A stretch of 34,317 nt of DNA from an uncultured bacterium (lineage in GTDB: Bacteria > Planctomycetota > UBA1135 > UBA2386): NCBI GenBank assembly GCA_965534055.1, contig CBESZZ010000002.1:1-34317 (forward strand), in the 5' to 3' direction. How positions within the stretch are numbered: position 1 is the stretch's first letter; each line of letters begins with the position of its first letter. The position numbers were made by a program, and so were the translations under genes. Positions 160-33,165 of the stretch are shown piece by piece. The notes beneath the pieces are model-generated. The model was given only the letters and a program-made list of their open reading frames with translations, was not told the DNA's origin and ran no database searches.

Positions 160-771
160 ATGGGCCATGCTTCGGACCGATCTGCGCTTTCACCACGTCC
201 CGCCGGCGGGCTTGGCTGGCCGTTGGCCATCCTGCTGTGCATCGGGGGACTCGCCCTGACCTTGGCTTTGGGGCGGTGGCTGCACCGTCCGGATTGGCAC
301 ACGGCGGCGAAGATGGTCGTCGAGACCTCGCTCGACAAGAAGGCTCGGGTCGGACTGACCCGCGAGGTCCTCCGCGGCGCCGAACGAAGCTTGGGTTCCG
401 ATCCGGCGGCGTTCGCGTGGGCGGTGGCCGCCGCCCTAAGCCTCGACGATGGCGGCGCGCTGCAGCGACTCGCGGACCACGCGGAGATCGCGGATCCCTG
501 GACTGACGCGTTCGCCGCCGAAGTCATTCGGTCGCTCGAGCACGCGTCGACCTCGGGCGAGCCATCGAAAGTCGAGACCGGCCTAGCGCTGGGCCAGGCC
601 CCCGTGGGGTTGGTGTTTGCCGCGCTTCAGGCGGAGCACGAGGGTCAAGCGATCACGGCGCGGACGGTGTTTCGCAAAGCCCAGTCGGGCGCACGGCTGT
701 GGGCGCTGAGCCAAACCATCCAGTTCGCGAAAGTCGGAATCGCGCGGGCGACCCGTCGAGCGGGCGGGTGA
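160..771 (+). CDS. hypothetical single-pass membrane protein
   Basis: Same frame as track ORF 16..771. The ATG at 160 lies just upstream of one hydrophobic helix (WPLAILLCIGGLALTLALG); the rest is Ala/Leu-rich and helical. Third codon positions are G/C-rich, as in the recognisable genes here. No family recognised. The start could instead be the GTG at 16. Confidence 0.5.
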   Translation: MGHASDRSALSPRPAGGLGWPLAILLCIGGLALTLALGRWLHRPDWHTAAKMVVETSLDKKARVGLTREVLRGAERSLGSDPAAFAWAVAAALSLDDGGALQRLADHAEIADPWTDAFAAEVIRSLEHASTSGEPSKVETGLALGQAPVGLVFAALQAEHEGQAITARTVFRKAQSGARLWALSQTIQFAKVGIARATRRAGG

Positions 772-795: not shown

Positions 796-1341
796 ATGTT
801 CGCCCTACTAGCTGAACGCGGCAAGGCGGTTGCCTGGGCACTGGTGGATGGACCCATGGTCGCGGTCGCCAACATCTTTGCGGGTGCGTTGGGCGTGGTT
901 CGCGGCTCTCCGCGGGAGCTGCTCTGCTTCCTTGCGGGCATTTCCTGGTGGCTCTGCGCCCCATTGCAGTGGCCGATCCAGATTGTCCTCGCCGCGATTT
1001 ATGGACGGGGCGTCGCGGTGTGGGTGACCTTCCACGGACGGCAGGTGTTCCGCATCCGCTTGTATGGCTGCACAGGTCGATCCGGTGACGCCTGCGGCTA
1101 TGCCCGCGGCGCGTTCTCACTGCCGGGCTGCATTTGGCTTGGCTATCCCGGCGAATACACCGCAACCGACGGCCGGACTCTGCAGTCCCACGAAGCCGCG
1201 CACCAGCAGACTGCGTTGATGCTCGGGCCGATTTACTACCCTGTCGCGATTCTCGACATCGTGGTGCACGGAGTAATTTCCGATGGTGGGTGGTTGCATC
1301 CGGTCACCGACGGCTGGGACGTCGAAACGCTCAAGTCTTGA
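796..1341 (+). CDS. hypothetical polytopic membrane protein with HExxH (HEAAH) motif
   Basis: ATG-initiated ORF with G/C-rich third positions. It has several hydrophobic segments (MVAVANIFAGALGVV, LLCFLAGISWWLCAPL, IQIVLAAIYG). SHEAAHQQ at nt 1189..1203 lies immediately before a final hydrophobic stretch (LMLGPIYYPVAILDIVV). No family recognised with certainty. Confidence 0.5.
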   Translation: MFALLAERGKAVAWALVDGPMVAVANIFAGALGVVRGSPRELLCFLAGISWWLCAPLQWPIQIVLAAIYGRGVAVWVTFHGRQVFRIRLYGCTGRSGDACGYARGAFSLPGCIWLGYPGEYTATDGRTLQSHEAAHQQTALMLGPIYYPVAILDIVVHGVISDGGWLHPVTDGWDVETLKS

Positions 1342-1393
1342 CCGCAGAAAGTCGATCCCATGGGCCTCTCCACTCCATTTCGGAGCCGACGCC

Positions 1394-2749
1394 ATGGACG
1401 ACACCAGACTGGGCACACTGCTTCTCGAGGGGCAGGTTGTGGCCGAACAGGACCTCGAACGCTGTCTCGAGATCCAAACCCTCACGGGCGGATCCCGCCC
1501 GATCGGACAGATCTTGGTTGAGCAAGGCTTGGTCACCCAGCCTGAGCTCACCAGACTTCTCGAACTGCAGCAGTCGCGGCTGCAAGTCGGACCGATTCCC
1601 GCGGTCAGCGCTCGCAGCCAAGTCTCGCAGGCCGCCGGTGATCCGGACCGTGATGCTGGGTCGAAGCCATACCTGCGTTGGGCCGCGAGCTGCGGCGCCA
1701 ACGAACTCGTGGTGAGCGAGGGGCGCCCGCCGCTCGTAAAGGTTGCGGGTTCTTGGCAGTGCCTCGCAGAGGAGCCGTTGAGTGGACCAGACGTTTGGCA
1801 ATTCGTGCGCTCGGAGATGGGCGGCGATGTGCTGGATGGATTGGCTGAAGCGCGTTGGGTCGAGCGGGACTACTCCCGATCCGGAATCGCGCACGGCAGG
1901 ATGACCGCCTTCCGACACTTCGATGGTGTGGCTGTGCAGGCGACGGTGTTGCCGTTCGAAGCCATCGTGGGGCACGCGGGATCACAGGAACCCACGATCC
2001 CCGACGGCGTGCTCGACACGCTTACCTCGGCGCAAGGGTTGGTCATCGTCGGCACTGACAAGGGCCGCGGTCGTGCGGAGACCTTCGAACGAATCCTTGG
2101 CCGCGTCGCGCAAGACGCGACCAAGCTGATCATCGTGCTCGACGAGTCATTTGAGTACTTGCCCCGGACGCTTCCGGAGAACGAAACGCCGCAGGCTTTG
2201 GTGCAGCGGCGCCTGGTCGGCCCACGCAAAGGTGCTTGGGCTGAAGGGCTTCGTTCCGCGTTGCGCGAACAACCCGACGTGTTGTTGGTCGGTGACGTGG
2301 GAGACCCCGATGCTTTTGACATTGCGCTTCGTGCCGCGGAAGCCGGTCAGCTTGTCGTCGCCGGATTGCACACACGCTCGGTCGTACGCGGCGTGCGCAA
2401 AGTGCTCGACTTCTACCCCTCCTATGAGGTGCCTCGCGTGCGCAATGCTCTCGCCGGGGTGTTGCGGTTCTTCGTTGTGCAGCATCAGGTGCCGGACATC
2501 GACCACGTGACCATGTTGACCGCCAGCGAGCTGTTGATGTTCGACGAGCCCACGCGCGATGCACTGCGCTCGGGCCACCTTGACAGCATGTCGCTGCTGA
2601 TGCGCATGGAAGACGGGGAGCACACGCAGAGTTTGGACCACGGTTTGTTGACCCTGTTGCGCCGTGGAATGGTTCGTTTCGAGGACGTGTTCAACCACGC
2701 CGAAGACAAGGCCAAGATCCTTTCGCAGTCACCGGGAGCCAAGTCATGA
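1394..2749 (+). CDS. PilT/GspE-family ATPase paralog with N-terminal MshEN-like domain and destroyed Walker A (probable pseudo-ATPase / nucleotide-second-messenger receptor)
   Basis: Track ORF 1283..2749; I place the start at the ATG at 1394 (MDDTRLGTLLLEG...). The N-terminus carries two 24-aa MshEN-type repeats. The C-terminal part is collinear with PilT: ALRSALREQPDVLLVGDVGD matches ALRxALRxDPDxILVGEMRD, and AAEAGQLVVAGLHTRS matches AAETGHLVFGTLHTxS. The Walker A position reads GTDKGRGRAET instead of GPTGSGKST. The stop overlaps the next start as ATGA. Confidence 0.8.
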   Translation: MDDTRLGTLLLEGQVVAEQDLERCLEIQTLTGGSRPIGQILVEQGLVTQPELTRLLELQQSRLQVGPIPAVSARSQVSQAAGDPDRDAGSKPYLRWAASCGANELVVSEGRPPLVKVAGSWQCLAEEPLSGPDVWQFVRSEMGGDVLDGLAEARWVERDYSRSGIAHGRMTAFRHFDGVAVQATVLPFEAIVGHAGSQEPTIPDGVLDTLTSAQGLVIVGTDKGRGRAETFERILGRVAQDATKLIIVLDESFEYLPRTLPENETPQALVQRRLVGPRKGAWAEGLRSALREQPDVLLVGDVGDPDAFDIALRAAEAGQLVVAGLHTRSVVRGVRKVLDFYPSYEVPRVRNALAGVLRFFVVQHQVPDIDHVTMLTASELLMFDEPTRDALRSGHLDSMSLLMRMEDGEHTQSLDHGLLTLLRRGMVRFEDVFNHAEDKAKILSQSPGAKS

Positions 2750-3828
2750 GTTCTTCGATTCTCAAAGTTCGCGGCCGAGAGCTGCTCGAAGAGTGGCTCG
2801 TCGAAGTGCAGCGCAACGACGCGACTGCGCTTCACGTGCAGCCCAACGCGGCTCCCTGCATGCGCATCGACTCCAAACTGGAAGCGATTGGTGAGACCAC
2901 CATGCGCACCGAGTGGATCACCGAGCTGCTGCACGAGTTCTTGTTTGCAGACCACCGCGAGCAGCTGGAGAAGACCGGCGCGGTCGACGTGCTCTACGTG
3001 GCTCGCAGCGGTCAGCGCTTTCGCACATGGGTGACGCAGCTGGCCGATGGTCCCGCGCTCACCATGCGTCGCGTGCGCCAAGCCGTGCCAACGCTAGAAG
3101 GTCAACGGCTGCCGGAACTCCTGGCGCACCTCATGCAGTTTCAATCCGGACTGATCGTGGTGTCTGGGTTCTACGGCGCGGGCAAGTCCGCGACCGTCGC
3201 TGCGATGGTTGAACGCATGGTGCGTGCATCCGTGCGCAACGTCGTGACCGTGGAGCACCCCATCGAGTTCGTCTATGAGGCCTCCCGTGCTTTGGTTCAC
3301 CAACGGGAAGTCGGCGCGCACGTCGATTCCATCGCGGATGGAGTGCGCCAGGCAGTGCGTCTTGGCGCCGACGTGGTCATCGTCAGCGAGCTTCCTGACC
3401 TCGCAAGTCTCGAGGCAGTGCTCTACGCCGTGGAGCGTGGACTTCTGGTGCTCACGACCATCGAAGCGGGCAGTGTGGTTGGCACGATGTATCGCCTGAT
3501 TGGAATGGCGCCACCGGAAGAGCGCAGCCGAATGCGCATGCGTGTCGCCGCCGCTCTTCGTGCTGTCATCGGGCAAACGCTGCTTGCCGACAAAGAAGAC
3601 AAGCGTCGTGTGCCCTTGCTGGAGGTTCTCATTCAGAACGAGAGTGCTCGCAGCATCGTCCGGCAGGGCCGGTTCGAAGATCTAGTGTCCGTGATGGAGC
3701 GCGGTCACGGCCTTGGCATGCAGACCGTCGACATCGCGTTGCGCGGCCTGCTGAAGCGCGGGGAGATCACGAAGCAAGAGGCGCTTTATCACGCCGTCGA
3801 TCGCGAGGCGTTCAGGCGTTCGGTGTAG
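2746..3828 (+). CDS. PilT-family hexameric ATPase, divergent (His box lost)
   Basis: Collinear with PilT over its whole length. Matching segments are ATALHVQPNAAPCMRIDS, RFRTWV, Walker A GLIVVSGFYGAGKSAT, Asp box VTVEHPIEF, HQREVG, Walker B ADVVIVSELPD, SARSIVRQG (the AIRNLIRE region) and GMQTVD. ETGH/TLHT is replaced by ERGL/TIEA. The ATG at 2746 overlaps the upstream TGA. Confidence 0.85.
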   Translation: MSSSILKVRGRELLEEWLVEVQRNDATALHVQPNAAPCMRIDSKLEAIGETTMRTEWITELLHEFLFADHREQLEKTGAVDVLYVARSGQRFRTWVTQLADGPALTMRRVRQAVPTLEGQRLPELLAHLMQFQSGLIVVSGFYGAGKSATVAAMVERMVRASVRNVVTVEHPIEFVYEASRALVHQREVGAHVDSIADGVRQAVRLGADVVIVSELPDLASLEAVLYAVERGLLVLTTIEAGSVVGTMYRLIGMAPPEERSRMRMRVAAALRAVIGQTLLADKEDKRRVPLLEVLIQNESARSIVRQGRFEDLVSVMERGHGLGMQTVDIALRGLLKRGEITKQEALYHAVDREAFRRSV

Positions 3829-3897: not shown

Positions 3898-4800
3898 CTA
3901 CTGTCCGAGCCGTTTGCGCAGCTCTGTAGAGCCCGGGAATCGCCCGACCCCCCGTTCCCAAGTGGTGCGGGCCTTTTCAGCATTGCCGGCCTGCGCATGC
4001 ATGTTGCCCAGGAATAGGTAGGTGGCTTCGTGCTTCGGATCCAGAGGGCTAGCTTCTTGTTGGCCCATGAGCGTGGTGAAGTGCTGAATCGCTTCCGGCT
4101 GCTTGCCCAAGAATGCCGGCTGGTTCGACAACGACATCGCCTTGTTGAATCGTGCGCCCCAGTGGTGATCGTCAAGCTCGAGCGCTTCGTCGAATTGGGC
4201 TTCGGCCAGCTGTCCGTACTTCATCATCCCCGCCATGTCCGAGTTCATCAGGCGCTGCACATAAGCCTCACCTAGGGCGTTTTGCGCACTGGCGTCGTTG
4301 GGGTTCGCGTTGGCCAACGCCTCGTACTGCTTCAAGAGCTCGTCCTGTTGCTCCGGAGTGAGATCGTTCCACCTGGCAGCGATGTCATCCCACTTCATGT
4401 CTGAGTTGGCGCGCAGCTCATCGAACAGCGTCTTGGCTTCAAAATCACTGTTGCTGCTGGCATCCATCGCCTTCGCAAGGGTCTCGGCCGCACCCGGCGC
4501 GTTCGCGCCCATGCTTTCGAAGTGGCGCGCCACCGCGGCGTCGATCATCGCGGCGTCGACGGCTGGCAGTGCCGTGCGCTCAGGTCCGGCGGCTGGTTGG
4601 ACAGCGTTCTTCGTCAGCTGTTCGACTCGCAGCTCAAGGTCCGCAATCCTTGCCGCCGCGGCCGCTTCGGCGTCAGTCTGAGCGACTTCCGGCCCCTGGC
4701 CATCGCGACGCTCTTCGCCGGGTTTCATGAATGTCATGACGCCGACGGAAACGGCTGAAGCGAGCACTGTGGACGTGAGAATGAGTGGGAGAGTTTTCAT
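3898..4800 (-). CDS. signal-anchored / secreted TPR-like repeat protein
   Basis: Track ORF 3898..4893; I place the start at the ATG at 4800 (MKTLPLILTSTVLASAVSVGVMTF), a signal or anchor sequence. A coiled, acidic middle follows. The C-terminal half has TPR-like helix pairs (NALGEAYVQRL, AEAQFDEALELDDHH, YLFLGNMHAQAGNAEKARTTWERG). Confidence 0.7.
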   Translation of the reverse strand: MKTLPLILTSTVLASAVSVGVMTFMKPGEERRDGQGPEVAQTDAEAAAAARIADLELRVEQLTKNAVQPAAGPERTALPAVDAAMIDAAVARHFESMGANAPGAAETLAKAMDASSNSDFEAKTLFDELRANSDMKWDDIAARWNDLTPEQQDELLKQYEALANANPNDASAQNALGEAYVQRLMNSDMAGMMKYGQLAEAQFDEALELDDHHWGARFNKAMSLSNQPAFLGKQPEAIQHFTTLMGQQEASPLDPKHEATYLFLGNMHAQAGNAEKARTTWERGVGRFPGSTELRKRLGQ

Positions 4801-4987
4801 GGGTGATTGGGTGGTAAGAGAGCGTGTCTCATGCGATTGAGCCCCCGGATGATTCGCAGTTCTTGAGCGTTGCTGTGACCGCTGAGCCTTCAAATTCGGT
4901 GAGACCGGAGCCCGAGCTCCAGCCCGTGGGGCGGGCCTTCGCAGCGTTCAGACTCAGCCGGCAACGCGCCCGGCAGTTCGCCGCGCC

Positions 4988-6019
4988 CTACTCCAGCTCC
5001 AAGCCCTTCTCTTCTTCCTCGGTGATGCCTTCGCCGAACGAAGACCCAAGATACACCTGCCGGACTTTTTCGTCGCTCACGATGGTCTTCGCATCGCCTT
5101 CTGCGATTACCTGGCCCTGATACAGAATGTAGGCGCGGTCGGTGATTCGTAGCGTTTCGAGCACCGCGTGGTCGGTGATAAGGATCGAAATGCCGCGGGT
5201 TGCGAGCTGCGCGAGGATCTTCTGGATCTCTTCGACAGTGATTGGATCGACGCCCGCGAATGGCTCGTCGAGGAGGAGCAATTTGGGGTCGGTAGCCAGT
5301 GCGCGACTGATCTCCAGGCGGCGGCGTTCGCCACCGGAGAGGGTTTCCGCGATGGATTTGCGCAAATGCAGCAGTTGGAGTTCGTCGAGCAGTTCTTCTG
5401 CGCGGGCGAGACGTTCGTTGCGCTTGGTGCCGCGGGCTTCGAGCACAGCCAAGACGTTGTCGAGCACGGTCATCCGACGAAAGATGGATGGCTCTTGCGA
5501 TAGGTAGCCCAGGCCGCGCCGGGCGCGGCGATACATGGGCATGCGGGTGAAGTCTTTGCCCTGAAAGAGCACCTGACCCTCGTCGGGCTTGACCATGCCG
5601 ACCACCATGCGGAACGACGTGGTCTTGCCTGCACCGTTGGGGCCGAGCAAGCCGACAATCTCGCCGCGCCCGACGGCGAGACTGACGTTGTCGACGACGC
5701 GGCGGCGCTTGTAGGTCTTGCAGAGTCCTTCAGCGACGAGGATCTCTTCGAACGGCTCCAGGTTGTCGTCGCGATCCACCTCGGGAGCTTGGTCCTCTTC
5801 GCCGAGTTCGAAGTCGGTGCCCTCGAGTTGCCCCTCAAAGTGAGAGTCTTCGTTTACGGCGTCTTCCAGCGGCTCCAACTCCATGAGCGGCTCGAGCTCG
5901 TCTGTAGCAGGCGGGCGGCTTGGCCGTGCCGGGCTCTTTCGCGGCGTGCCGGGGCGCTTCGGCTTTGAGCCGGCAGGGTTCCCGGGCCGACGTGCGGCTT
6001 GCTCACGCGGCTTGGTCAC
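4988..6019 (-). CDS. lptB: LPS export ABC transporter ATP-binding protein LptB with about 100-aa low-complexity N-terminal extension
   Basis: Walker A GLLGPNGAGKTT, YLSQEPSIFRRMTVLDN, signature LSGGERRRLEI, Walker B LLLDEPFAGVD and H-loop ITDH. The track ORF starts at the TTG at 6064. A GTG at 6019 overlaps the lepB stop as GTGA, so I prefer it. An ATG at 5884 is another option. Confidence 0.85.
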   Translation of the reverse strand: MTKPREQAARRPGNPAGSKPKRPGTPRKSPARPSRPPATDELEPLMELEPLEDAVNEDSHFEGQLEGTDFELGEEDQAPEVDRDDNLEPFEEILVAEGLCKTYKRRRVVDNVSLAVGRGEIVGLLGPNGAGKTTSFRMVVGMVKPDEGQVLFQGKDFTRMPMYRRARRGLGYLSQEPSIFRRMTVLDNVLAVLEARGTKRNERLARAEELLDELQLLHLRKSIAETLSGGERRRLEISRALATDPKLLLLDEPFAGVDPITVEEIQKILAQLATRGISILITDHAVLETLRITDRAYILYQGQVIAEGDAKTIVSDEKVRQVYLGSSFGEGITEEEEKGLELE

Positions 6020-7614
6020 CGAATGAAACCCGCGTAGTTGTGGCCAAAGGGTGGGAACGGCCAAAAGCCCAAGAGCGCGCGCCCGAGCATGTGCTCTTTG
6101 GGCACGAACGAAACCTTCGATTCGACCGGGCTCCAGTCGCCGCCGCCGTCCATCGGACGGAAGTGCAACGTGCCACCTTCGAGGTAGTGCGGCGAGAACT
6201 TCGACTTCAATGGCCAGACGTTGCCCAGGTCGTCCAGCATCGACACGCGGTCGCGGTCGGGAAGTGCGATGGGGGTTTCGTCTCTGTCGACCGGTTGGGT
6301 GGGATCGACCGGCCGCTTGTTGCCACGAAGCACCTGCGCCTCTGGGTTGGTCGCCGGGTTCACCATGCTGCCGTCCGGCAGGCGACCGACTTCGATCGCG
6401 GTCCAGCCACGCGAGTCCACCGACTGCAGCGTGTTGTCGCCCATCATGAAGTAGTGCCCTTCTGGCACGTTGATGACGTGCTCGCGCTCGTCAAAGAAGT
6501 TGCGCCACGTGTAGTGCAGATCTCGGTCGATGGTGAGCGCGGCGAGCTTCACGTTGCCGGGCTTCGCCATCGTGCATTCGATCGTCGGCACGCACGCTGC
6601 CGAACCCGTGTCTGGGCGCAAGCCGTCGAGCACGCGGATCGTGGTGTCAAACTCCGCAACCTGCACGCCGTTGAGCGACGCGCGCATCATGTCGTCGCGG
6701 TGAAGGAAGCCAATTTCGGTCGCAGCGCCTGCGGGCACTGCAAAGTCGAACGGGTCAGAGCGTTGCTCTTCTCCGCCGGCTACGCGGGCCACCAATGTGC
6801 CTCGTCCCTTGGCGACTTCGAGAGCGAAGACGATGTCCGGCGTCGCGGGCCGCTGCACCTCAAGCGCTAGCTGCAGTGTTGTCGGTTCTTGATCTGAGGT
6901 GATCGTGACGCGGATCCTGCCATCGACCACGGTTTCCAGCGTCGCATCTTGCATGCGTCCGTTCTGGCTGTTCTCCGCGTCGCGAATTGCCTTGCTGATC
7001 TCGATGGGGTAGCCGTCCCATACCCGGTTGACGAAGCCGCCATCCGGTCGGTCCACGAACCGCAGTCGCGCCGTTTGGCCGGTGCTGAGCTTGGCGGTGA
7101 GTGTCTCTTCGCTGGACGTCCAGGCTCGCCCTGGCGTGCCGCGGAACGCCTTGTCGAGCGGGTCGGTCTCGCCGCGCACGTGCATCCGTCTGGGGAACAG
7201 TTCTTTCCACAGCATCGGTTGGATTCGATCCGGTTTGCGCAGCACGTCGCTGGGTGCCTTGTCCGCACCGAGCTGGTAGACGTTGCCGCCGGCAATGCGC
7301 AGCGAGTCGCCACCGATGCCCAGGATGCGCTTGACGTAGTTCTGGTCTTGCTGCAGCGGGTAGCGGAAGACCGAGACGTCCCAGCGTTTGGGATCGCTGA
7401 ACTCATAGGTAATCTTGTCGACGAGAATCCGACTGTGCACGCCCGCTTCGCTCGATCCCATGAGGGTCGGCTGCATGGACGACGTCGGGATTTGAAACGC
7501 TTCGATGGCGAAGTATTTCATGAGCACGGCTGCCATCAGCGCGACGGTCAGTGCTTCCAGGTTATCGCGCACGGCACCGCGCACCTTGCCGATCTTCTTG
7601 CTCATATCAGCCAT
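6016..7614 (-). CDS. lepB: signal peptidase I (large form)
   Basis: N-terminal TM (ALTVALMAAVLMKYF), box B SSMQPTL (Ser nucleophile), box C VSVFRYP, box D YVKRILGIGGD (general-base Lys) and box E GHYFMMGDNTLQSVDSRGW. It lies directly downstream of lepA, as in many bacteria. The start is the ATG at 7614 (8-nt overlap with lepA) or the ATG at 7605 (better spacing from GGAGAGG). Confidence 0.9.
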   Translation of the reverse strand: MADMSKKIGKVRGAVRDNLEALTVALMAAVLMKYFAIEAFQIPTSSMQPTLMGSSEAGVHSRILVDKITYEFSDPKRWDVSVFRYPLQQDQNYVKRILGIGGDSLRIAGGNVYQLGADKAPSDVLRKPDRIQPMLWKELFPRRMHVRGETDPLDKAFRGTPGRAWTSSEETLTAKLSTGQTARLRFVDRPDGGFVNRVWDGYPIEISKAIRDAENSQNGRMQDATLETVVDGRIRVTITSDQEPTTLQLALEVQRPATPDIVFALEVAKGRGTLVARVAGGEEQRSDPFDFAVPAGAATEIGFLHRDDMMRASLNGVQVAEFDTTIRVLDGLRPDTGSAACVPTIECTMAKPGNVKLAALTIDRDLHYTWRNFFDEREHVINVPEGHYFMMGDNTLQSVDSRGWTAIEVGRLPDGSMVNPATNPEAQVLRGNKRPVDPTQPVDRDETPIALPDRDRVSMLDDLGNVWPLKSKFSPHYLEGGTLHFRPMDGGGDWSPVESKVSFVPKEHMLGRALLGFWPFPPFGHNYAGFIR

Positions 7615-25772: not shown

Positions 25773-26510
25773 TTACTGCGTCGGCCGATCGGGGACGGGC
25801 TCAGCGGACTCAGCAGAGTCCGGTGCTGGCAAGAACCGCAGGCCCACGCCGCGAACCGTAAGAAACGTTTGCGGGTTGCGACCATCGACTTCGAACAGCG
25901 AACGCAGTCGCAGCAGCACGTTGTCGACTGTGCGATGGGTCGATGGCGTGTGCGGTCCGAACAGCACGCGAACAATCTCCTGGCGCGTGATCACGTCGCC
26001 TGGACGTCCGGCCAAGAGCCGGAGCAGTTTGACCTCGGTGCCGCTGAGCCGTTCGGTTTCGCCGTTCGCCAACTGCGCCTCGTGTGCGCGTAGGTCCACT
26101 GTGTGACCCATGAAGCGAAGCACCTCGGGTTTGTCGGTCGGCGGCTCCGTGCGCTTGAGAAGCGCCGCGGCTCGCAGGATCAGTTCGCGACGATCAAAGG
26201 GTTTGCCTAGGTAGTCGTCTGCCTTCAGCTCCAGCCCGCGAATGCGATCTTCAGTCGAGCTGCGGGCCGAGAGAATCAGCACCGGCGTTTCGTCGCCGCG
26301 GTTGCGCATCCGCGTGAGCACTTCGAGACCGTCGAGTTCCGGCAGCATGAGGTCGAGAAGGACGAGGTCGACGTGGTCGTCGCCGAGTGCGGCCAGGGCA
26401 CGGTCGCCGCGTTGCTCCCAACGCACTTCGTGCCCTTCATCTCGCAAGACGTCGCAGATCATCTCGCCCAGCGTGGATTCGTCTTCAACGACGAGGATGT
26501 GCTTCTTCAC
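25773..26510 (-). CDS. OmpR/PhoB-family response regulator
   Basis: ILVVEDE, DLVLLDLMLPELDG (phospho-acceptor Asp), VLILSA, KPF and a winged-helix end TVRGVGLRF. The GTG start overlaps the kinase stop (GTGA). Confidence 0.92.
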   Translation of the reverse strand: MKKHILVVEDESTLGEMICDVLRDEGHEVRWEQRGDRALAALGDDHVDLVLLDLMLPELDGLEVLTRMRNRGDETPVLILSARSSTEDRIRGLELKADDYLGKPFDRRELILRAAALLKRTEPPTDKPEVLRFMGHTVDLRAHEAQLANGETERLSGTEVKLLRLLAGRPGDVITRQEIVRVLFGPHTPSTHRTVDNVLLRLRSLFEVDGRNPQTFLTVRGVGLRFLPAPDSAESAEPVPDRPTQ

Positions 26511-27679
26511 GAGGGTTGCTCCATGTTCGGGAAGGAGACAGTGAATGTGGCGCCTTGACCAGGCCCGAGGCTCGCGGCGTAGACCGTGCCGCCGTGGGAG
26601 CGTGCGAGGTCGCGGACGAGGCCGAGACCGATGCCCGAGCCACCAATGTGGCCTACCCCACGGAGTGCAGTGGCCACATCGGCTTGTGGATCGTCCGTGT
26701 CATCGCTGCTGAAGCTCGTGCGGCCACGGTAGAACGGCTCAAAGAGGTACGGGAGATCTTCTGCGCGGATGCCGCATCCGGTGTCTGCAACGACGACGCG
26801 CACGATGTCAGCTTCACGCTCGAGGTGGACGTCTACGCGGTCGCCTCGCGAGGAATACTTCAATGCGTTGTCCAGCAGGTTGCGAAGGATGACCTGTACC
26901 GCTCGCGGGTCGCGGAGATAGTTCAACTCGTTGCGGGGATCAGGCGAGTCGGTCCATTCTAGGGCGATGCCCAAGGTTTCGGCACGTGGTCGCATCGACT
27001 CCAGCGCAATGCCCGCGTCGGACGCCAGGTTGCCTGGCTGTAGGTCTACGTCTTCGGGCACGGGATCTACCCGCCGCCGCTCGCGTGTCCCTGACGCCGT
27101 CAACGATGCCGCGGACAAGAGGTTGTCGACTGTGAGGTCCAGCCGATCGAGCTCTTGCCGCATCGCCTTGCGGTACCGCTGCTGGCGTTCGGCGTCGAGC
27201 GATCCGCTTTCGATCGAATCCAGACCGAGGCGCAGCGTGGTTAGGGGTGTCTTCAGCTCGTGGGTTGTCCCCGCCAAGAAGCGCTGTTGGCTGAGTCGCA
27301 TGCGCCGCTCGCGCACGAGGCTTGCGTAGAAGAACGCAACGCCAAGCAAGACGATCAAGCCTAGGAACGCGCCTTCGGCCGCGAACATGAACCGACGACG
27401 CCACGACTGTCGCTCCACCGCGTCGCGCACGCGATCGGGAGACTTTGAATCTCCGGAAGGAAGATCCAGGAGTGTGTCGAGTGCGTCGGTCGACCGATTT
27501 TCGAGCAGAAGCGCGCTGACGGTTTCCAGGCGATCGGCTTCGCGAAACTGGAACACAATCCACCAGGTCACCTGCGCCAAGCCGAACAGCACAACGAGAG
27601 CGAACAGCACCGTCGATCGCCGCGGGGTGTGGAGTGAACGCAACGTCTGGGGGCGTCTCTGCGAGCTGGGACGAGTCAT
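26507..27679 (-). CDS. sensor histidine kinase (two TM helices, about 60-aa periplasmic loop)
   Basis: H box GTTHELKTPLTTL, N box NLLDNALKYS, G1 DTGCGI and G2 GSGIGLGLV. TM helices are VLFALVVLFGLAQVTWWIV and AFLGLIVLLGVAFFYASL. The ATG at 27679 overlaps the upstream TGA as ATGA; the track ORF starts at the GTG at 27685. Confidence 0.9.
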   Translation of the reverse strand: MTRPSSQRRPQTLRSLHTPRRSTVLFALVVLFGLAQVTWWIVFQFREADRLETVSALLLENRSTDALDTLLDLPSGDSKSPDRVRDAVERQSWRRRFMFAAEGAFLGLIVLLGVAFFYASLVRERRMRLSQQRFLAGTTHELKTPLTTLRLGLDSIESGSLDAERQQRYRKAMRQELDRLDLTVDNLLSAASLTASGTRERRRVDPVPEDVDLQPGNLASDAGIALESMRPRAETLGIALEWTDSPDPRNELNYLRDPRAVQVILRNLLDNALKYSSRGDRVDVHLEREADIVRVVVADTGCGIRAEDLPYLFEPFYRGRTSFSSDDTDDPQADVATALRGVGHIGGSGIGLGLVRDLARSHGGTVYAASLGPGQGATFTVSFPNMEQPS

Positions 27680-30600
27680 CGACACGGAATGACTTCGACC
27701 ATCTGGATTCCGACTTCGCGATTGCTCGGACCCTTCACGCGGATCTTCAAGAACCCCACCGACCGCTCAAGCTGATCTGGAAGTTCGATCAGGAGCACGC
27801 GCGGCTTGGAGGGGAGACCCATGTTCTGGCACAGCTGATACCGCTTGTCCTGCTTCGGCAGGCGTAGTTCCACGTCCATCAGCAGATCCTCTGAAGCGGG
27901 CTTGGGAGCCTGGCTGTCGGTGAGCTTTGTGCGATCCAGCAGGCCGCCGAGGATGCGCAGGCACAGTGCACCGCGCGGCAGCACGCATGACGTCGTGATG
28001 GTTCCGTCGCCTGCGGCGTCCAGAGGGATGTGCAGTGCCAGCGTGCGTACGACCCCATCTACAAACCGCGCGGCGGGTCGCGGAAGATCGTCTTGCCGCG
28101 CGCGATGAAACACATTGGCCTTTGGCACCAAGTGTTGAGCAGACAACCGAACGGTTGTCGGCGGGGTTCCTGCTGGCACGTCGGCATTCGCGTGCCGGAT
28201 GTGCCATGCGATCGGCGCGCCTGACGGCAGGTCGAGCTCGAACGGCGACTGCGTGATGCTCTCGTCGAGGCGCCAACGCATCAGAGTCTGTGAACCGGCC
28301 ATCAGTGAGAGGTCCACGGGTCGGTGACCCTCAACCGATTCGATGGCGCCGAAGAGTCGTTGGCTGGCGTCGCCTGCTGGCGCTTCGAACTGCGCGTGCA
28401 GGGTTGGTTGCCGTGCGCCATCCGCGGTGGGGTGGTTGTTGGAGAGAGGGGGACGAAGAATCGTGGCACCGGCATCTTCTTGGGCGCCTCCGATCAGAGG
28501 CTCGAAGGTGCCGAACACCCGAGGAGCCTCTTGGATTTCACCGTTTGCTGTGCGTGTCGTCGTCCAGATGGCCGTGGATGGATCGAGCGTTTGCACCGCG
28601 TAGTGAAGGTCTACGCGCCGCCCATCGTTTTCAGCGTTCGTCCGTAGATTGCTCAGCTCCCACGGCACTTCACCTTGCAGCGTGGACAGCCGCGGACTCG
28701 ATGATCCATCCAGGCGAGTGGCTGCGAGGAAGAGGTCGTCGGCCGTGCCAACCTCCAGTGGAGTTGGGCGGCCTTCTGGCTTGGATGACACGCGCATGTA
28801 GTTCAGCGGAAAGGCGCGCCCGGGAACGTCACCGGTGCTGCGCATGACGAGCATTCCGGGGTTCTTGGACACGTCGTGGATGATGTGCACCCCGCCTTTG
28901 CGGATGCCCGGATCCGCTGGTCCGGATCGACGATTCTCGATCAATAGCCTGCCTCGATCGGGCAACGCGATGCAGGGCAGTTCCACGTAGGCGCGGTCTT
29001 CCGTGAGCACGGGCAGTTCAAGTGCTTCGTGGTCGATCGAATCCAAGACGAGCGCGTCCGCCCAACCGAGCTTCGACGCATGGAACGACGCGGGTGCGCT
29101 TGGGAAGTGCCCCTGACCACGTCCACCGCCGGTAAGCGCGAGTCCACCAAATCGGCCGTTGCGGGGCCAATCCAGCTGTTCCAGCTGGCTCTGAATATCC
29201 AGCAACGCCGCGAGTGAACGACCCGTCGACACGAAGCTCCCGTCCGGTTCGCGGACGGGGAGAGCCAGCATGCGAGGTTTGCCAGTCGTCGTCGTGGTTT
29301 GATCGACCGGAAGTCGCAGGCCTGGTGCGTGCACCAAGATCCAAGCATCAAACGGCGCAGCGGCCTTTGTGGTCGCAAGGTTTTCTTGGAGGTGTCTGGC
29401 AACGGCGTTTCGCAGCGTTGCATCTGCGTCTGGCTCGCTGGCCAAGTCGTCCGCAAGCATGGAAAGCAGCAGTGGCTCCGCGACTTCGCCGCGCACGCTG
29501 CTCAGGCCGCCTGACATGGCATTCAGCAGTTCGGCGACCGAACCTGCCGTCGATTTGCTGTTGGGTGGCGGGGTGCGGCGGTAGTCGGAAGGCGAGAAGA
29601 ACGCCTGGCGCAAGTCTTCCGTCGTTCCTGTGAACGGTGCGTCCGAAAACGAGAGCGGCACGATGGCGATGCGCAACTCGAGTCGAAGGTCAGAGCGCGC
29701 CGCGTTGGTGACAACTGTCGAGTCGGGCAGTCGCCGAATCGTCGTGCCTCGAGTGCGGAAGCGCACGCGATCCAGGAAGCACGCGCCAACCATGGCGTCG
29801 AACGACACATCGACGTAACCGTCCGGCCAGAGGCGTCTGTCGGCCAACGTGTAGTTCGCGGTCCACGTGGCGCGCAGCGCGAGTTCCGCGTTTGGGTTCG
29901 CCTGGGGTTCCAGCGAATCGAGAGCGCCTGATTCGTCCCCTACCGAGTTGAGTGACGAATCGGATTCATCGACGAGTTCGCCGTCCGCGGGCAGCAACGG
30001 CTGATCGTCGACGCGCAGGACGAACGACCCTGCACCGTGCACCTCCAGGTCCAGCGCGGTCGCCGTCGTCGGCACGGAGATCCGATAGGTGATCGATGTT
30101 TCTGGCGGCACGACGCGGCATGTGCGGGTGGTTTCGGGATAGCGGCCGATCTTCGAAACTCCGGCGTCAATCAATCGGTGTTCGTCATCGCGTCCCGGTT
30201 CGATCGACGCACGGGAACCGATCGTGAAGCGGTGCCAGCCTTCGGTGGGCGCGCTGAGAACGACTTTGTCGTCGATCTTCGCGACCAGTCGCATTCGCAG
30301 CGACTCTCCGGGATTGCGATCTGCTAGATCCAACCGATCCGCACCGGGATCGCTGGTGTCGACCATCAGCTGATGCAAGCTCGGATCGCTTTCCAGCGAG
30401 GCAACGGGGCGCAGCGGCAGAACCCACTGTTCGCCACTCTCGGCTTCGACTTCGAACGCGTAGCGAAACGGTGCGCCAAGCGTGGTCTCCGCCGCCGCCC
30501 ACGGCGAGAAGGGTGTGCTGTTCGCGTACTCCGTGCTTGGTTGGAAGCGAAGCTGAGGCAAGCGAGTCACTGGGAGTTGCAGGCCGAGGCTCAACTCATC

Positions 30601-33165
30601 TCGGCTGTGTTCGCCACAGTCCGTCGCACCGCAGAACACTCGGAAGCGAATGTCCGGCGGTCCGGGCAGGTGATGGAACGTGACGCGGGCCTGTCCGTGG
30701 TCGGCGATCGAATGCAGCTGCAGACGCACCATGCGCGTCTCCGTGTCGATCTGTAGATCCTTGGCCCAGATGGTGTCGACACCCAGCGCCACGGGTGGCG
30801 TTGTGCCATCCACGATCACTTGGCCGAGTCGCCTGCGCACGGCCTCCGCGATCGTGACCGATGTGCCAATGCCCCAATACAAGTCGCGTGCGGTGATCGG
30901 CTTCGGCGGTGTCGCCTGGATGCCCAACGCGTTCGCCAAACTCGCACGAAGCGCGGCGAGTCCTCGCACCAAAGTGGCTCGGTCTGCGGATTGGGACCAA
31001 GCCGTGAGCCAAACGTCTGCTGCGAGCGCTTGCCGAGGGTCGTCGCGGACCGTTGCAAGTCCGTGTGCTCTGAAGCCGCCCACGGTTTGGTGGGGATCGC
31101 CGGCGCGGGGATCCACAATTTGCAGCGCGGCGAGGTCTGCGAGGCAGCGGTCGAACAGGCGGTTGAGTTGAAGCTCTGCAAGCGGGTTGTCGCTAGCTCC
31201 GTCGATCGTGCGCAGGATTATGATGGCCTGCGCGGCGAATGCGGGCCCAAAGAAGCTCGTTGGGCTTTGCAGGCCTGCAGGCCGTGGTTCCGCGTTGGGC
31301 TGTGCTGCGAGCACTTCGGGATCTCGCCACGGATCCAGCGAGTCGGTGTCACTCGGTGGCGCATCACCGGTCGTGAGAAGCGCGTCGCCGATCGCTAGCA
31401 GTGCGGTGCGTGCCGCGGCGATGCTCTCCCGCGATCCGGAGATCCGCGACCAGATGGCGAGGTATCGAGCCACCGCGGCGGACTCCGCGGGGCTGCCGAT
31501 GAATGGGCCGTTGCGCGGCGCGCTGTAGCGGCTGTCGAAGTAGGCCGGAAACGCGCCGTTAGGCATCTGGTTGGCCAACGCGAAATTGTTGAGGCGGCGG
31601 GCGGTGCGAAACACCTGCAAGCGCACATTCGGCAGGTTTTGGCTCAGCTGCAGCATCCAGTAGCCGGTCGTCGCTGCATCGGCGAGTCGAATGTGATCTT
31701 CGATCCCCGTCTCTTCATGACCGAAGCTGCTGAGCAACGTCTCGATCGAACCCTGGTCGTCCGCCGCGAAACTCCAAGCTGCGGGAAACGCTGCGGTCAC
31801 CTGCGGCGCTTCGAGCAGCGCCGTCAGGAAGTCTGCGGCGATGGTTCGGTGAGATTCTTCTTCGCTCGCCGCAAGGCCGGTGCCGAGGCGGAGAAGCTGG
31901 AGCCTGGTGGTGAACCAGGCATCCTGCGGGCCGGCGCGCTCCAGGCTGGGCAAGGCCAGCCGTTTCTCGCCCAAAGACACCCGCTGCAGTGCGCCCTTTA
32001 GGCGCGGCCCGAAGACGTTCTCAACCACATCCCGCAGCGTGAAGCGGCCTGGCTGTTCGAGTTGTCTCTTGAGGGCTGGGAGCGCGAGGTCTGACTCGAA
32101 GTTCTTGGCCGCAACCGCGGAAGCCGGTCCTGGCAGAATGGTCACCGTGTGGTGGGCGATCAACGTCTCCCCCTGCACCAGGCGAGGGGGAGCGGGCACG
32201 AAGCGCAGGCTTTCAGGTGCTTCCGGTGCCGCGTCCGTTCGGTTGCGGGTCGCGGTGTGAGTGAGGAAGCCGAACCCGAGCTGTGACGATGAGGGCGTTG
32301 CGAGGATTGCGTGCGGTAGCGACCGGCTCTCCGCTGGGTCGAGTTTGAACTCTTCAGATGGCTCGGCCGTCGTGGTTGATTCGCCGCGCGCTGTGATTGG
32401 GTTCCAGCCTTCGTCCAACCTGGCAGTGGTTTGCGGCGCGATCCGCATTCCACTCTCCGCTCCGTGCATGGTTGCTCCGCGGCCGAGAAAGGCTGCTTCC
32501 CCGGTGATGAACCGATTCGACGTCTCAGGCATGGGAGCTGCGTGCGGCATCGACCAGGAAACCACGGGCACCGCTCCCTCCGTGACCGGATCGATGAGCG
32601 TGTACTCCAACGTGAGCTCGTAGAGCTGCGACGCCAACCCTGCACGGTCGAGCAATTCGACGTCAAAGACGGGCAGCGTTTCGGAGGTGCGGGTGAACAC
32701 TCGCACCTCCACTTCGTGGCCGGACGCGCGGCATGGCAGCAGCAGCGCGCCGGGGCCGATCCGCGTGGGTCGCCCGAAGTGCAGTACGGTTGTCTCCAAG
32801 GTGTCGCCAGGCCCGGAGGTCGTCAGCCGCACGCCGCGGCACGTGATCCTTGGGTCGACACGGTCCGAGGGCGCCTCGGCCGTGACGACACCGAAGAATA
32901 GCTGGTGAGACTTGTCATCCAATCGGCGCGTCCAGATGCGTCCTTCCGGTGCTGCATCGTTCGGGCCTTGGACTGGGAATGTTTTGCTGGCCGCCTCGAA
33001 CGGTCGCTCCGCTGCGGAGACCGTGGGCAGTCCTGGGCCGGGGCCGGTCGATGGTGTCGGCGGCCCGGGGCGCGTTCCGCAGCCAGACACGAGGGCACAA
33101 CCAGCCGAGATGCCGACCACGGCGGTCGCGAAGCGACGAATCGAGCAACCAAGGCCAGAACTCAC
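27676..33165 (-). CDS. giant (1,829-aa) multidomain lipoprotein of unknown function
   Basis: Uninterrupted 5.5-kb ORF with a GTG start. The N-terminus MSSGLGCSIRRFATAVVGISAGCALVSGCG has an RR pair, a hydrophobic core and the lipobox VSGC. A helical region has Q..NGAFP-type toroid-like repeats (residues about 415-780). An M6/InhA-like stretch spans residues about 1163-1440. The remainder is beta-rich. Confidence 0.85.
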   Translation of the reverse strand: MSSGLGCSIRRFATAVVGISAGCALVSGCGTRPGPPTPSTGPGPGLPTVSAAERPFEAASKTFPVQGPNDAAPEGRIWTRRLDDKSHQLFFGVVTAEAPSDRVDPRITCRGVRLTTSGPGDTLETTVLHFGRPTRIGPGALLLPCRASGHEVEVRVFTRTSETLPVFDVELLDRAGLASQLYELTLEYTLIDPVTEGAVPVVSWSMPHAAPMPETSNRFITGEAAFLGRGATMHGAESGMRIAPQTTARLDEGWNPITARGESTTTAEPSEEFKLDPAESRSLPHAILATPSSSQLGFGFLTHTATRNRTDAAPEAPESLRFVPAPPRLVQGETLIAHHTVTILPGPASAVAAKNFESDLALPALKRQLEQPGRFTLRDVVENVFGPRLKGALQRVSLGEKRLALPSLERAGPQDAWFTTRLQLLRLGTGLAASEEESHRTIAADFLTALLEAPQVTAAFPAAWSFAADDQGSIETLLSSFGHEETGIEDHIRLADAATTGYWMLQLSQNLPNVRLQVFRTARRLNNFALANQMPNGAFPAYFDSRYSAPRNGPFIGSPAESAAVARYLAIWSRISGSRESIAAARTALLAIGDALLTTGDAPPSDTDSLDPWRDPEVLAAQPNAEPRPAGLQSPTSFFGPAFAAQAIIILRTIDGASDNPLAELQLNRLFDRCLADLAALQIVDPRAGDPHQTVGGFRAHGLATVRDDPRQALAADVWLTAWSQSADRATLVRGLAALRASLANALGIQATPPKPITARDLYWGIGTSVTIAEAVRRRLGQVIVDGTTPPVALGVDTIWAKDLQIDTETRMVRLQLHSIADHGQARVTFHHLPGPPDIRFRVFCGATDCGEHSRDELSLGLQLPVTRLPQLRFQPSTEYANSTPFSPWAAAETTLGAPFRYAFEVEAESGEQWVLPLRPVASLESDPSLHQLMVDTSDPGADRLDLADRNPGESLRMRLVAKIDDKVVLSAPTEGWHRFTIGSRASIEPGRDDEHRLIDAGVSKIGRYPETTRTCRVVPPETSITYRISVPTTATALDLEVHGAGSFVLRVDDQPLLPADGELVDESDSSLNSVGDESGALDSLEPQANPNAELALRATWTANYTLADRRLWPDGYVDVSFDAMVGACFLDRVRFRTRGTTIRRLPDSTVVTNAARSDLRLELRIAIVPLSFSDAPFTGTTEDLRQAFFSPSDYRRTPPPNSKSTAGSVAELLNAMSGGLSSVRGEVAEPLLLSMLADDLASEPDADATLRNAVARHLQENLATTKAAAPFDAWILVHAPGLRLPVDQTTTTTGKPRMLALPVREPDGSFVSTGRSLAALLDIQSQLEQLDWPRNGRFGGLALTGGGRGQGHFPSAPASFHASKLGWADALVLDSIDHEALELPVLTEDRAYVELPCIALPDRGRLLIENRRSGPADPGIRKGGVHIIHDVSKNPGMLVMRSTGDVPGRAFPLNYMRVSSKPEGRPTPLEVGTADDLFLAATRLDGSSSPRLSTLQGEVPWELSNLRTNAENDGRRVDLHYAVQTLDPSTAIWTTTRTANGEIQEAPRVFGTFEPLIGGAQEDAGATILRPPLSNNHPTADGARQPTLHAQFEAPAGDASQRLFGAIESVEGHRPVDLSLMAGSQTLMRWRLDESITQSPFELDLPSGAPIAWHIRHANADVPAGTPPTTVRLSAQHLVPKANVFHRARQDDLPRPAARFVDGVVRTLALHIPLDAAGDGTITTSCVLPRGALCLRILGGLLDRTKLTDSQAPKPASEDLLMDVELRLPKQDKRYQLCQNMGLPSKPRVLLIELPDQLERSVGFLKIRVKGPSNREVGIQMVEVIPCR

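Follow-up and report, generated by a model that had tools for sequence, protein, structure and literature searches.

A conserved two-gene module of PilT-like proteins with a predicted c-di-GMP-sensing dead subunit and a sigma-28-type promoter in uncultured Planctomycetota

Control of type IV pili by cyclic diguanosine monophosphate (c-di-GMP) is known on the extension side, through MshE, PilB and the FimX-PilZ-PilB complex. The extension ATPases MshE, PilB and PilF (5HTL and 8PFA; PMC5013675, PMC11731258) carry an N-terminal four-helix bundle with a tandem 24-residue motif on a secretion-ATPase fold, and MshE makes pilus dynamics respond to c-di-GMP (PMC5013675). Two adjacent PilT-family genes on the same strand form the PilT-PilU tandem of Vibrio cholerae and Pseudomonas aeruginosa, in which the two proteins interact and the second depends on the first: PilU acts only through PilT, and even an ATPase-dead PilT still supports it (PMC6762196). 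In Myxococcus xanthus, the adjacent PilT paralogs MXAN_6705 and MXAN_6706 lie away from the pil cluster, the first with a longer N terminus; this pair is conserved across the order, and deletion of MXAN_6706 results in a partial defect of S-motility, i.e., pilus motility (bioRxiv 10.64898/2026.05.11.724270). Finally, metagenomic single-chain PilT-PilT fusions of about 730 amino acids (aa) (P0257, P0261 and P0294) contain two PilT-like domains that are obliged to work together. Here, we describe a pair of PilT-like genes, gene 1 and gene 2, from an uncultured planctomycete (assembly GCA_965534055.1, contig CBESZZ010000002.1); the 34,317-nucleotide stretch that was analyzed is called the window in the following.

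The window pair resembles each of these systems in some respects and differs in others. As in PilT-PilU, two PilT-family genes are adjacent on one strand, the model of gene 1 has the PilT fold and gene 2 matches a solved PilT by sequence. However, the first protein of the window appears to be naturally and permanently dead and has an MshEN head, the second is without a His box, both score below the curated family cutoff, and the pair has a sigma-28-type promoter and is located away from pilus genes. Gene 1 shares with MshE, PilB and PilF the N-terminal bundle on a secretion-ATPase fold, but its body is of the PilT (retraction) type and not of the PilB/GspE type, it has neither the MshEN_C subdomain nor the tetracysteine motif, and it is predicted to be catalytically dead. 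Since it is dead, any signal that it receives would have to be passed to another protein. For MXAN_6705/MXAN_6706, which we likened to the window pair by the published description only, all motifs are reported to be intact and the N-terminal extension to be disordered. The single-chain fusions, in contrast, are one polypeptide, have no MshEN head and belong to a different subfamily. The best explanation of the data presented below, which we regard as about evenly poised between right and wrong, is a conserved two-gene module under a sigma-28-type promoter in which a c-di-GMP-sensing dead subunit controls an ATP-binding partner in motile-phase cells, with type IV pili as the probable target.

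Gene 1 (positions 1394 to 2749, plus strand) encodes a protein of 451 aa with an N-terminal MshEN-type head and a PilT-family body, as seen from its open reading frame (ORF) and from family alignments. The PilT/PilU family model TIGR01420 spans its full length with 151.9 bits, below the curated cutoff of 319.1 bits. Residues of both proteins were aligned with the Aquifex PilT structure 2ewv. In place of the Walker A motif GPTGSGKST, gene 1 has GTDKGRGRAE, which lacks the first Gly, the Lys and the Ser; RRLVG stands at the place of QREVG, the Walker B motif reads VGDVGD instead of VGEMRD, with Asp for the catalytic Glu, and the His box reads EAGQ...GLHT instead of ETGH...TLHT, with the first His replaced by Gln and the second kept. 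No intact P-loop was found elsewhere in the alignment. At the AIRNLIRE helix that is typical of the PilT C terminus, gene 1 has PTRDALRS and gene 2 has SARSIVRQ; the two Arg residues and the hydrophobic spacing are kept, the rest is not. The AlphaFold2 model of gene 1 (predicted local distance difference test [pLDDT], 88) has the two-domain PilT fold consisting of N2 and a RecA-like C-domain; the best PDB matches were PilT4 (6ojx), PilT2, PilU and PilT, and the body superimposed on 6ojx with a TM-score of 0.87 on the target.

These substitutions are a property of the family. More than 250 relatives of gene 1 with about 430 aa were found, and every one for which the source was named came from a planctomycete metagenome-assembled genome (MAG). 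Among 120 relatives over which residues were counted, Lys was present at the Walker A position in none (Arg in 102, Leu in 10), and 109 had Asp for the Walker B Glu. At the His box, 113 had Arg for the first His, and at the second position 88 had Asp and 18 had His. The substituted P-loop is itself conserved, as GERGxGR. Judged by its motifs, gene 1 is a pseudo-ATPase, a PilT fold that is no longer able to bind or hydrolyze ATP normally.

The head of gene 1 consists of tandem MshEN (GSPII) motifs (1406 to 1570, plus strand) that are predicted from motif, profile and model to form a c-di-GMP-binding four-helix bundle. The published motif, two copies of RLGxx(L/V/I)(L/V/I)xxG(L/V/I)(L/V/I)xxxxLxxxLxxQ, binds c-di-GMP in MshE of V. 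cholerae (PMC5013675). Gene 1 has two copies of 24 residues each, motif 1 at aa 5 to 28 (RLGTLLLEGQVVAEQDLERCLEIQ) and motif 2 at aa 36 to 59 (PIGQILVEQGLVTQPELTRLLELQ). Motif 1 fits the published motif save for Q14 at position 10, where 90 of the 120 relatives have Gly, and motif 2 fits the relaxed published motif, with P-I for R-L at positions 1 and 2, as is allowed there. At least 112 of the 120 relatives retain each of the residues R5, L6, G7, L21, L25, Q28, G38, L52, L56 and Q59; the head is the best-conserved part of the protein, with a mean column identity of 76%. The spacer between the motifs has seven residues (TLTGGSR) instead of the five of the MshEN description; Geobacter PilB and the third GSPII domain of Thermus PilF have a spacer of this length as well and could be aligned with gene 1 ungapped. 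A profile of the head matched PilF, Geobacter PilB and MshE. In the AlphaFold2 model, the head has four high-confidence helices (aa 3 to 12, 18 to 30, 37 to 43 and 49 to 64), which is the four-helix MshEN_N fold. When the head was modeled alone, the top three Foldseek matches were 9g1w, 5htl and 8pfa, which are PilF GSPII-A, MshE with c-di-GMP and PilF GSPII-B; the match to 5HTL had a TMq of 0.76, a root mean square deviation of 1.0 Å and 34% identity. The Foldseek E values were weak (0.08 to 0.2) because the domain is small. A low-confidence linker that is disordered in the model (aa 66 to 87, pLDDT below 50; 1589 to 1654, plus strand), which is variable in length and gapped in the family alignment, joins the head to the PilT-like body.

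Gene 2 (2746 to 3828, plus strand) encodes the PilT-derived partner, a protein of 360 aa that TIGR01420 also spans over its full length, with 273.4 bits and thus below 319.1 bits; it matched PilT 2ewv with an E value of 1.7e-51 over residues 19 to 358. Its Walker A motif GFYGAGKS is intact and conforms to GxxxxGK[ST], the Asp box VEHPIEF has kept both Glu residues, HQREVG is intact and the Walker B motif VSELPD has kept its Glu. The His box reads ERGL...TIEA and has lost both His residues, to Leu and Glu, and no intact His box was found in the alignment. Gene 2 belongs to an ortholog group separate from gene 1; counted over 38 members, the Walker A Lys is present in 32, the Asp-box E170 in 38 and the Glu of QREVG in 35; the first His of the His box is absent from all 38 (Cys in 26), and the second is His in only 6 (Glu in 17, Asp in 9). 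Across the related loci, the Walker B position is mostly Glu, with Asp or other residues in about 10. In a maximum-likelihood tree, the gene 2 clade (support, 100/99) nests among canonical PilT proteins.

The initial annotation, made from the letters of the window, had described both proteins much in this way: gene 1 as collinear with PilT, without a P-loop, with Asp for the Walker B Glu and with one His-box His left, and gene 2 as still having Walker A and the Glu residues of the Asp box and of Walker B but neither histidine. The alignments with 2ewv bore out each of these substitutions. The division of labor that it proposed, a dead first protein beside a divergent second one with a competent P-loop, holds across the 120 and 38 relatives. 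It mentioned neither the MshEN head of gene 1 nor the promoter described below, the two features that are most telling of function.

The two genes are strictly paired. In the window, the stop codon of gene 1 and the start codon of gene 2 overlap in ATGA (2746 to 2749, plus strand), as read directly, an arrangement suggestive of translational coupling. Among 36 related loci drawn from species-representative genomes, gene 2 directly follows gene 1 in all, and the stop-to-start distance is -4 to +8 nucleotides (nt) in 37 of 37 sources (the 36 loci and the window); gene 1 is disrupted only in L036. An exhaustive HMMER search also retrieved many proteins of about 430 aa that match gene 1 over the full length at 26 to 32% identity and have an MshEN-type head and a PilT body, some of them with every catalytic motif intact (e.g., P0265, P0275 and P0278). 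Six such distant proteins were traced to contigs, where, according to the gene calls, a PilT-like gene of 349 to 394 aa follows directly in all six, with spacings from an overlap to a 36-nt gap. These six pairs, one of which is in a Myxococcota MAG (L087), sit in otherwise unrelated surroundings, and no flagellin gene was found near any of them. The co-occurrence of the two paralogs that the initial annotation had proposed to examine is thus complete in near and distant loci alike.

The TIGR01420 scores of the two members fall off from lineage to lineage. For gene 1 and gene 2, respectively, they are 442 and 427 bits in L087, 442 and 421 bits in L089, 352 and 389 bits in L088 and 368 and 403 bits in L086, so that in four of the six distant lineages both members exceed the PilT/PilU cutoff (gene 1, 352 to 442 bits; gene 2, 389 to 427 bits). 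The scores are 251 and 277 bits in L084, 207 and 306 bits in L085, 169 and 262 bits in the core clade (L082) and 152 and 273 bits in the window. By this measure, the lineages form a graded series, with pairs of bona fide PilT/PilU proteins at one end and the decayed pair of the window at the other. The motif losses vary between lineages, as expected of obligate partners, and in every lineage examined the His box of the partner is without its first His. We also considered complementary retention of His residues between the partners, but no such pattern was seen across the related loci. In the tree, the gene 1 bodies group with the MshEN-PilT proteins; because gene 1 and gene 2 fall in separate places, in different PilT subfamilies, they are not recent duplicates of each other, and an origin of the pair by tandem duplication was rejected.

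Other altered or combined PilT-like proteins were encountered in the same searches. The single-chain fusions (P0257, P0258, P0260, P0261, P0263 and P0294; about 710 to 1020 aa) have two complete ATPase modules in tandem; in P0294 the first module is degenerate (GNRGSGRS, LIDEVYG, no His) and the second is canonical. In PilT-like proteins of Gemmatimonadota (P0179, P0226 and P0238; L037 to L074), the Walker B Glu is changed to Asp (VLGDIAD), the second His is lost (TMPSAD, SMPTAD), or both, and by sequence this looks like another lineage with systematically altered PilT. PilT-like ATPases fused to other sensors, such as a cyclic-nucleotide-binding domain with T2SSE_N or a receiver (REC) domain, are common in metagenomes (P0432, P0466, P0489 and P0491 [602 aa]; P0423, P0442, P0446 and P0449).

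The consensus of sigma-28 (FliA) promoters is TAAAG-N(about 15)-GCCGATAA. A sigma-28-like promoter, TCAAGTCTTGACCGCAGAAAGTCGAT, is present at 1331 to 1356 (plus strand) of the window; it begins 63 nt before the ATG of gene 1, reads TCAAGTC-N-GTCGAT, and overlaps with its -35 element the last codons of the preceding ORF (796 to 1341). The pattern TCAAG-N16/17-[CGT]CGAT, which was chosen after the 130 nt before gene 1 had been read in all sources, occurs 50 to 74 nt before the gene 1 start in 35 of 36 sources, and the remaining one (L035) has a TAAAG variant, CTAAAG-N-GCCGAT. On both strands of 656 kb, the same pattern gave 74 matches, 35 of them at the gene 1 site, with about 25 expected from shuffled sequences. 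The sequences of the spacer vary freely between sources. Of the distant loci, L085 carries a motif of this kind before gene 1, and weaker versions of it are present in L084 and L086; no sigma-28-like motif was found before gene 1 in the three most distant loci. A generic scan for sigma-70 promoters and terminators gave nothing above chance. Since the promoter sits between the gene for a small transmembrane (TM) protein and gene 1, the transcription unit most likely consists of gene 1 and gene 2.

Flagellin is a classic sigma-28 target and serves as an internal control in the same loci. In 30 of the 36 related loci, a flagellin gene (276 aa) with the same type of promoter is located downstream of gene 2. 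The flagellin promoter of the relatives (L001 to L036; e.g., L002:12431-12530) reads CTCAAGCCC-N-TCCGAnCAT and is located about 60 to 120 nt before the start; a pattern built on the flagellin -10 element matched almost only before flagellin and never before the pair. The gap between gene 2 and flagellin is 115 to 417 nt (1,991 nt in L030) and contains flagellin's own sigma-28-like promoter; cotranscription of the pair with flagellin was rejected on these grounds. The pair persists without an adjacent flagellin gene in the window and in L007, L014, L017 and L027; these five sources and the unrelated contexts of the distant modules weaken flagellin adjacency as a proof of function. Going by the promoter motifs, expression of the pair probably coincides with that of late flagellar genes.

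Two features of the orphan flagellin were noted on the side. Its identity between genomes is 83 to 95%, compared with only about 45% for the PilT-like proteins of the same genomes, and its conserved leader, which ends in GGCGAATCA...AGGCAAAGGA, might be a CsrA/FliW-type site over the ribosome-binding site.

From the sequences and by analogy to PilT and PilU, we infer the following mode of action. The two proteins would be made in a fixed proportion and act together in a complex that has the form of a mixed ring or of a pair of stacked rings, and c-di-GMP bound to the dead subunit would switch the ATP turnover or the docking of the partner on or off. Strict pairing, tight translational coupling, joint decay along the same lineages and the published behavior of PilT/PilU argue for such a receptor with an ATP-binding partner. 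Because the module would be expressed together with flagellin, it would act in motile-phase cells, at the decision between swimming and attachment. Thus, the pair is probably a signal-gated switch of swimming cells and not an ordinary pilus motor. Its most likely target would be a type IV pilus machine encoded elsewhere, with retraction or holding of pili upon surface contact as the regulated step. Type IV pilus retraction or attachment is the probable target, favored by the descent of the pair from true pilus ATPases and by MXAN_6705/MXAN_6706, which may be a counterpart of the module; the flagellum is a less probable one and is kept alive by the promoter and the flagellin neighbor.

Several observations weigh against this explanation. 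When the main ORFs of the 34-kb window were scanned with Pfam and NCBIfam, no gene for a pilin, PilB/C/M-Q, GspF, a secretin or a platform protein was found, as the initial annotation had already stated for pilin, PilC/PilM-Q, GspF and secretin. Pilus genes were also absent within 6 to 10 kb in all eight annotated contexts of related and distant pairs, so that the pair was inside a pilus cluster in none of the eight. His-box residues are held to be essential for PilT activity and function, and the Walker A Lys is conserved (PMC5065972); with both His residues lost, gene 2 may be a poor ATPase or none. In motif 1 of the head, gene 1 has Gln at position 10, where even the relaxed published motif wants Gly, Ala or Ser, and the MshEN model NF053729 gave 32.4 bits with the window protein, below its curated cutoff of 38; across the relatives of gene 1 it gave 31.1 to 44.4 bits, with P0012, P0074, L084 and L086 above the cutoff. 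There is no flagellin gene near the pair in the window, and the promoter is known as a sequence motif only. Moreover, the PilT/PilU data point to two interacting homohexamers and not to mixed hexamers (PMC6762196). Since these data argue against mixed hexamers, stacked rings are as likely as the mixed ring that the initial annotation had proposed.

If the absence of pilus genes from the window and from the eight contexts is taken at face value, the module might act on the flagellum instead and brake or disengage it, help to shed it or control the handling of flagellin as c-di-GMP rises, a possibility that we consider unlikely. It would account for the sigma-28-like promoter before the pair in 35 of 36 sources, with its TAAAG variant in the last, and for the orphan flagellin with the same promoter type after gene 2 in 30 of the 36 relatives. 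c-di-GMP effectors under FliA control are known in principle, an example being YcgR of Escherichia coli; however, we know of no PilT-family protein that acts on the flagellum. Furthermore, the pair persists in five sources without an adjacent flagellin gene, distant lineages that have neither flagellin nor a sigma-28 motif carry it too, among them the Myxococcota MAG, and its ancestors score as true pilus ATPases. In a broader form of the same idea, a PilT-derived pair would have moved into the flagellar regulon, would need no pilus and, gated by c-di-GMP through its dead sensor subunit, would act on the flagellum or another envelope complex to end swimming. This, too, is improbable; if true, it would give the PilT subfamily its first function independent of pili and the secretion-ATPase superfamily its first natural, obligate pair of a dead and an active protein.

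One could also imagine that the two genes are simply neighboring accessory PilT/PilU paralogs whose products act separately, gene 2 as a weak extra retraction ATPase and gene 1 as a free-standing c-di-GMP-binding adaptor or sink that does not regulate gene 2. This would agree with the placement of the two proteins in different PilT subfamilies and with the many known pilT-pilU tandems, whose products assemble into hexamers of their own (PMC6762196). It is difficult to reconcile with the strict adjacency and tight stop-start coupling in 37 of 37 sources, with the adjacency in six of six distant lineages and with the loss of motifs from both proteins along the same lineages, and we give it little credence. 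That both genes are functionless, decaying relics of pilus ATPases would fit their scores below the PilT/PilU cutoff and the catalytic residues lost in each but is very improbable indeed, given intact full-length ORFs in more than 120 (gene 1) and more than 35 (gene 2) relatives at 40 to 50% identity, many invariant columns, including the substituted P-loop GERGxGR and the MshEN residues, the conserved promoter and coupling, and a confident AlphaFold2 model.

Upstream of the pair, a small protein with one N-terminal TM helix is encoded at 160 to 771 (plus strand); its start is uncertain, since the ORF (1 to 771) is open to the edge of the window. A hidden Markov model (HMM) built from 33 proteins of related loci identified it, as the sole significant six-frame match in the window (E value, 1e-9; 33 bits), as the ortholog of a gene of about 170 aa that is conserved directly upstream of the pair. 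It has no Pfam or NCBIfam match. The second ORF, at 796 to 1341 (plus strand), between this gene and gene 1, encodes a lineage-specific hydrophobic protein of 181 aa and is outside the conserved module: tblastn gave no match in any of the 36 related loci, and no family match was found. Gene calling also placed it on another contig from this organism (L079). Its HEAAH sequence resembles HExxH, and by sequence it could be a small membrane zincin. The two upstream membrane proteins, which the initial annotation had singled out for a co-occurrence analysis, therefore part ways: the small one-TM gene accompanies the pair in 34 of 36 related loci, whereas the ORF at 796 to 1341 does so in none.

In the clade, the local order is a divergent gene for a 205-aa protein, the small one-TM protein, gene 1, gene 2, the 276-aa flagellin, convergent LptB, signal peptidase and LepA. 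In the window, a convergent gene (3898 to 4893, minus strand) for a tetratricopeptide repeat (TPR) protein (Pfam TPR_14 and TPR_15) with an N-terminal TM or signal segment occupies the place that flagellin has in 30 of 36 relatives; homologs of this TPR gene are absent from the related loci. The other main ORFs of the window are housekeeping and unrelated genes, which encode an LptB-type ATP-binding cassette (ABC) ATPase, signal peptidase, LepA, Ham1, RNase PH, MetH, a glycosyltransferase, asparagine synthase, a rhomboid protein and a two-component pair. The LptB-like ABC ATPase (4988 to 6064, minus strand) is extended at its N terminus by an acidic and proline-rich stretch of about 100 aa, and the type I signal peptidase (6016 to 7614, minus strand) is unusually long, with 532 aa. 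An ORF of 1829 aa (27676 to 33165, minus strand) without a Pfam match at an E value of ≤0.001 is located directly upstream of the histidine kinase and response regulator pair (26507 to 27685 and 25773 to 26510). Also conserved near the module in this clade is a protein of about 726 aa with an HTH_GRAD domain and the N- and C-terminal domains of GreA/GreB (L080:6289-8469, L082:6174-8363 and L085:1552-3726, all minus strand); it is followed by a highly conserved 205-aa protein, which has a basic low-complexity N terminus and no family match.

The organism of the window was seen as low-depth fragments in invertebrate metagenomes (public runs) and in a very fragmented assembly (GCA_044240345.1), and the proteins of its pair are only about 50% identical to those of the freshwater/wastewater clade. 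It may be a host-associated planctomycete.

Secretion ATPases regulated by MshEN, tandems of PilT and PilU and c-di-GMP effectors in a flagellar regulon are all known already, and so is the logic of the proposed module. In the searchable literature, we found no description of a retraction-type ATPase with its own MshEN head or of a naturally dead one that signals to a partner, and none of this two-gene module in the literature on MshEN and PilT or on planctomycete pili and c-di-GMP. A large group of uncultured Planctomycetota shares the module, which is conserved among them and has catalytically intact cousins elsewhere, including a Myxococcota MAG, and its lineages form a natural series that would lead from two active motors to a sensor plus a motor. 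It thereby bears on the question, raised by PilT and PilU, of how two PilT-family proteins cooperate. Planctomycetota first swim and then attach during their life cycle, and, to our knowledge, hardly any of their c-di-GMP effectors have been studied. The sigma-28-type promoter would tie the module to the motile phase and makes it a concrete candidate for a switch between swimming and attachment in these bacteria.

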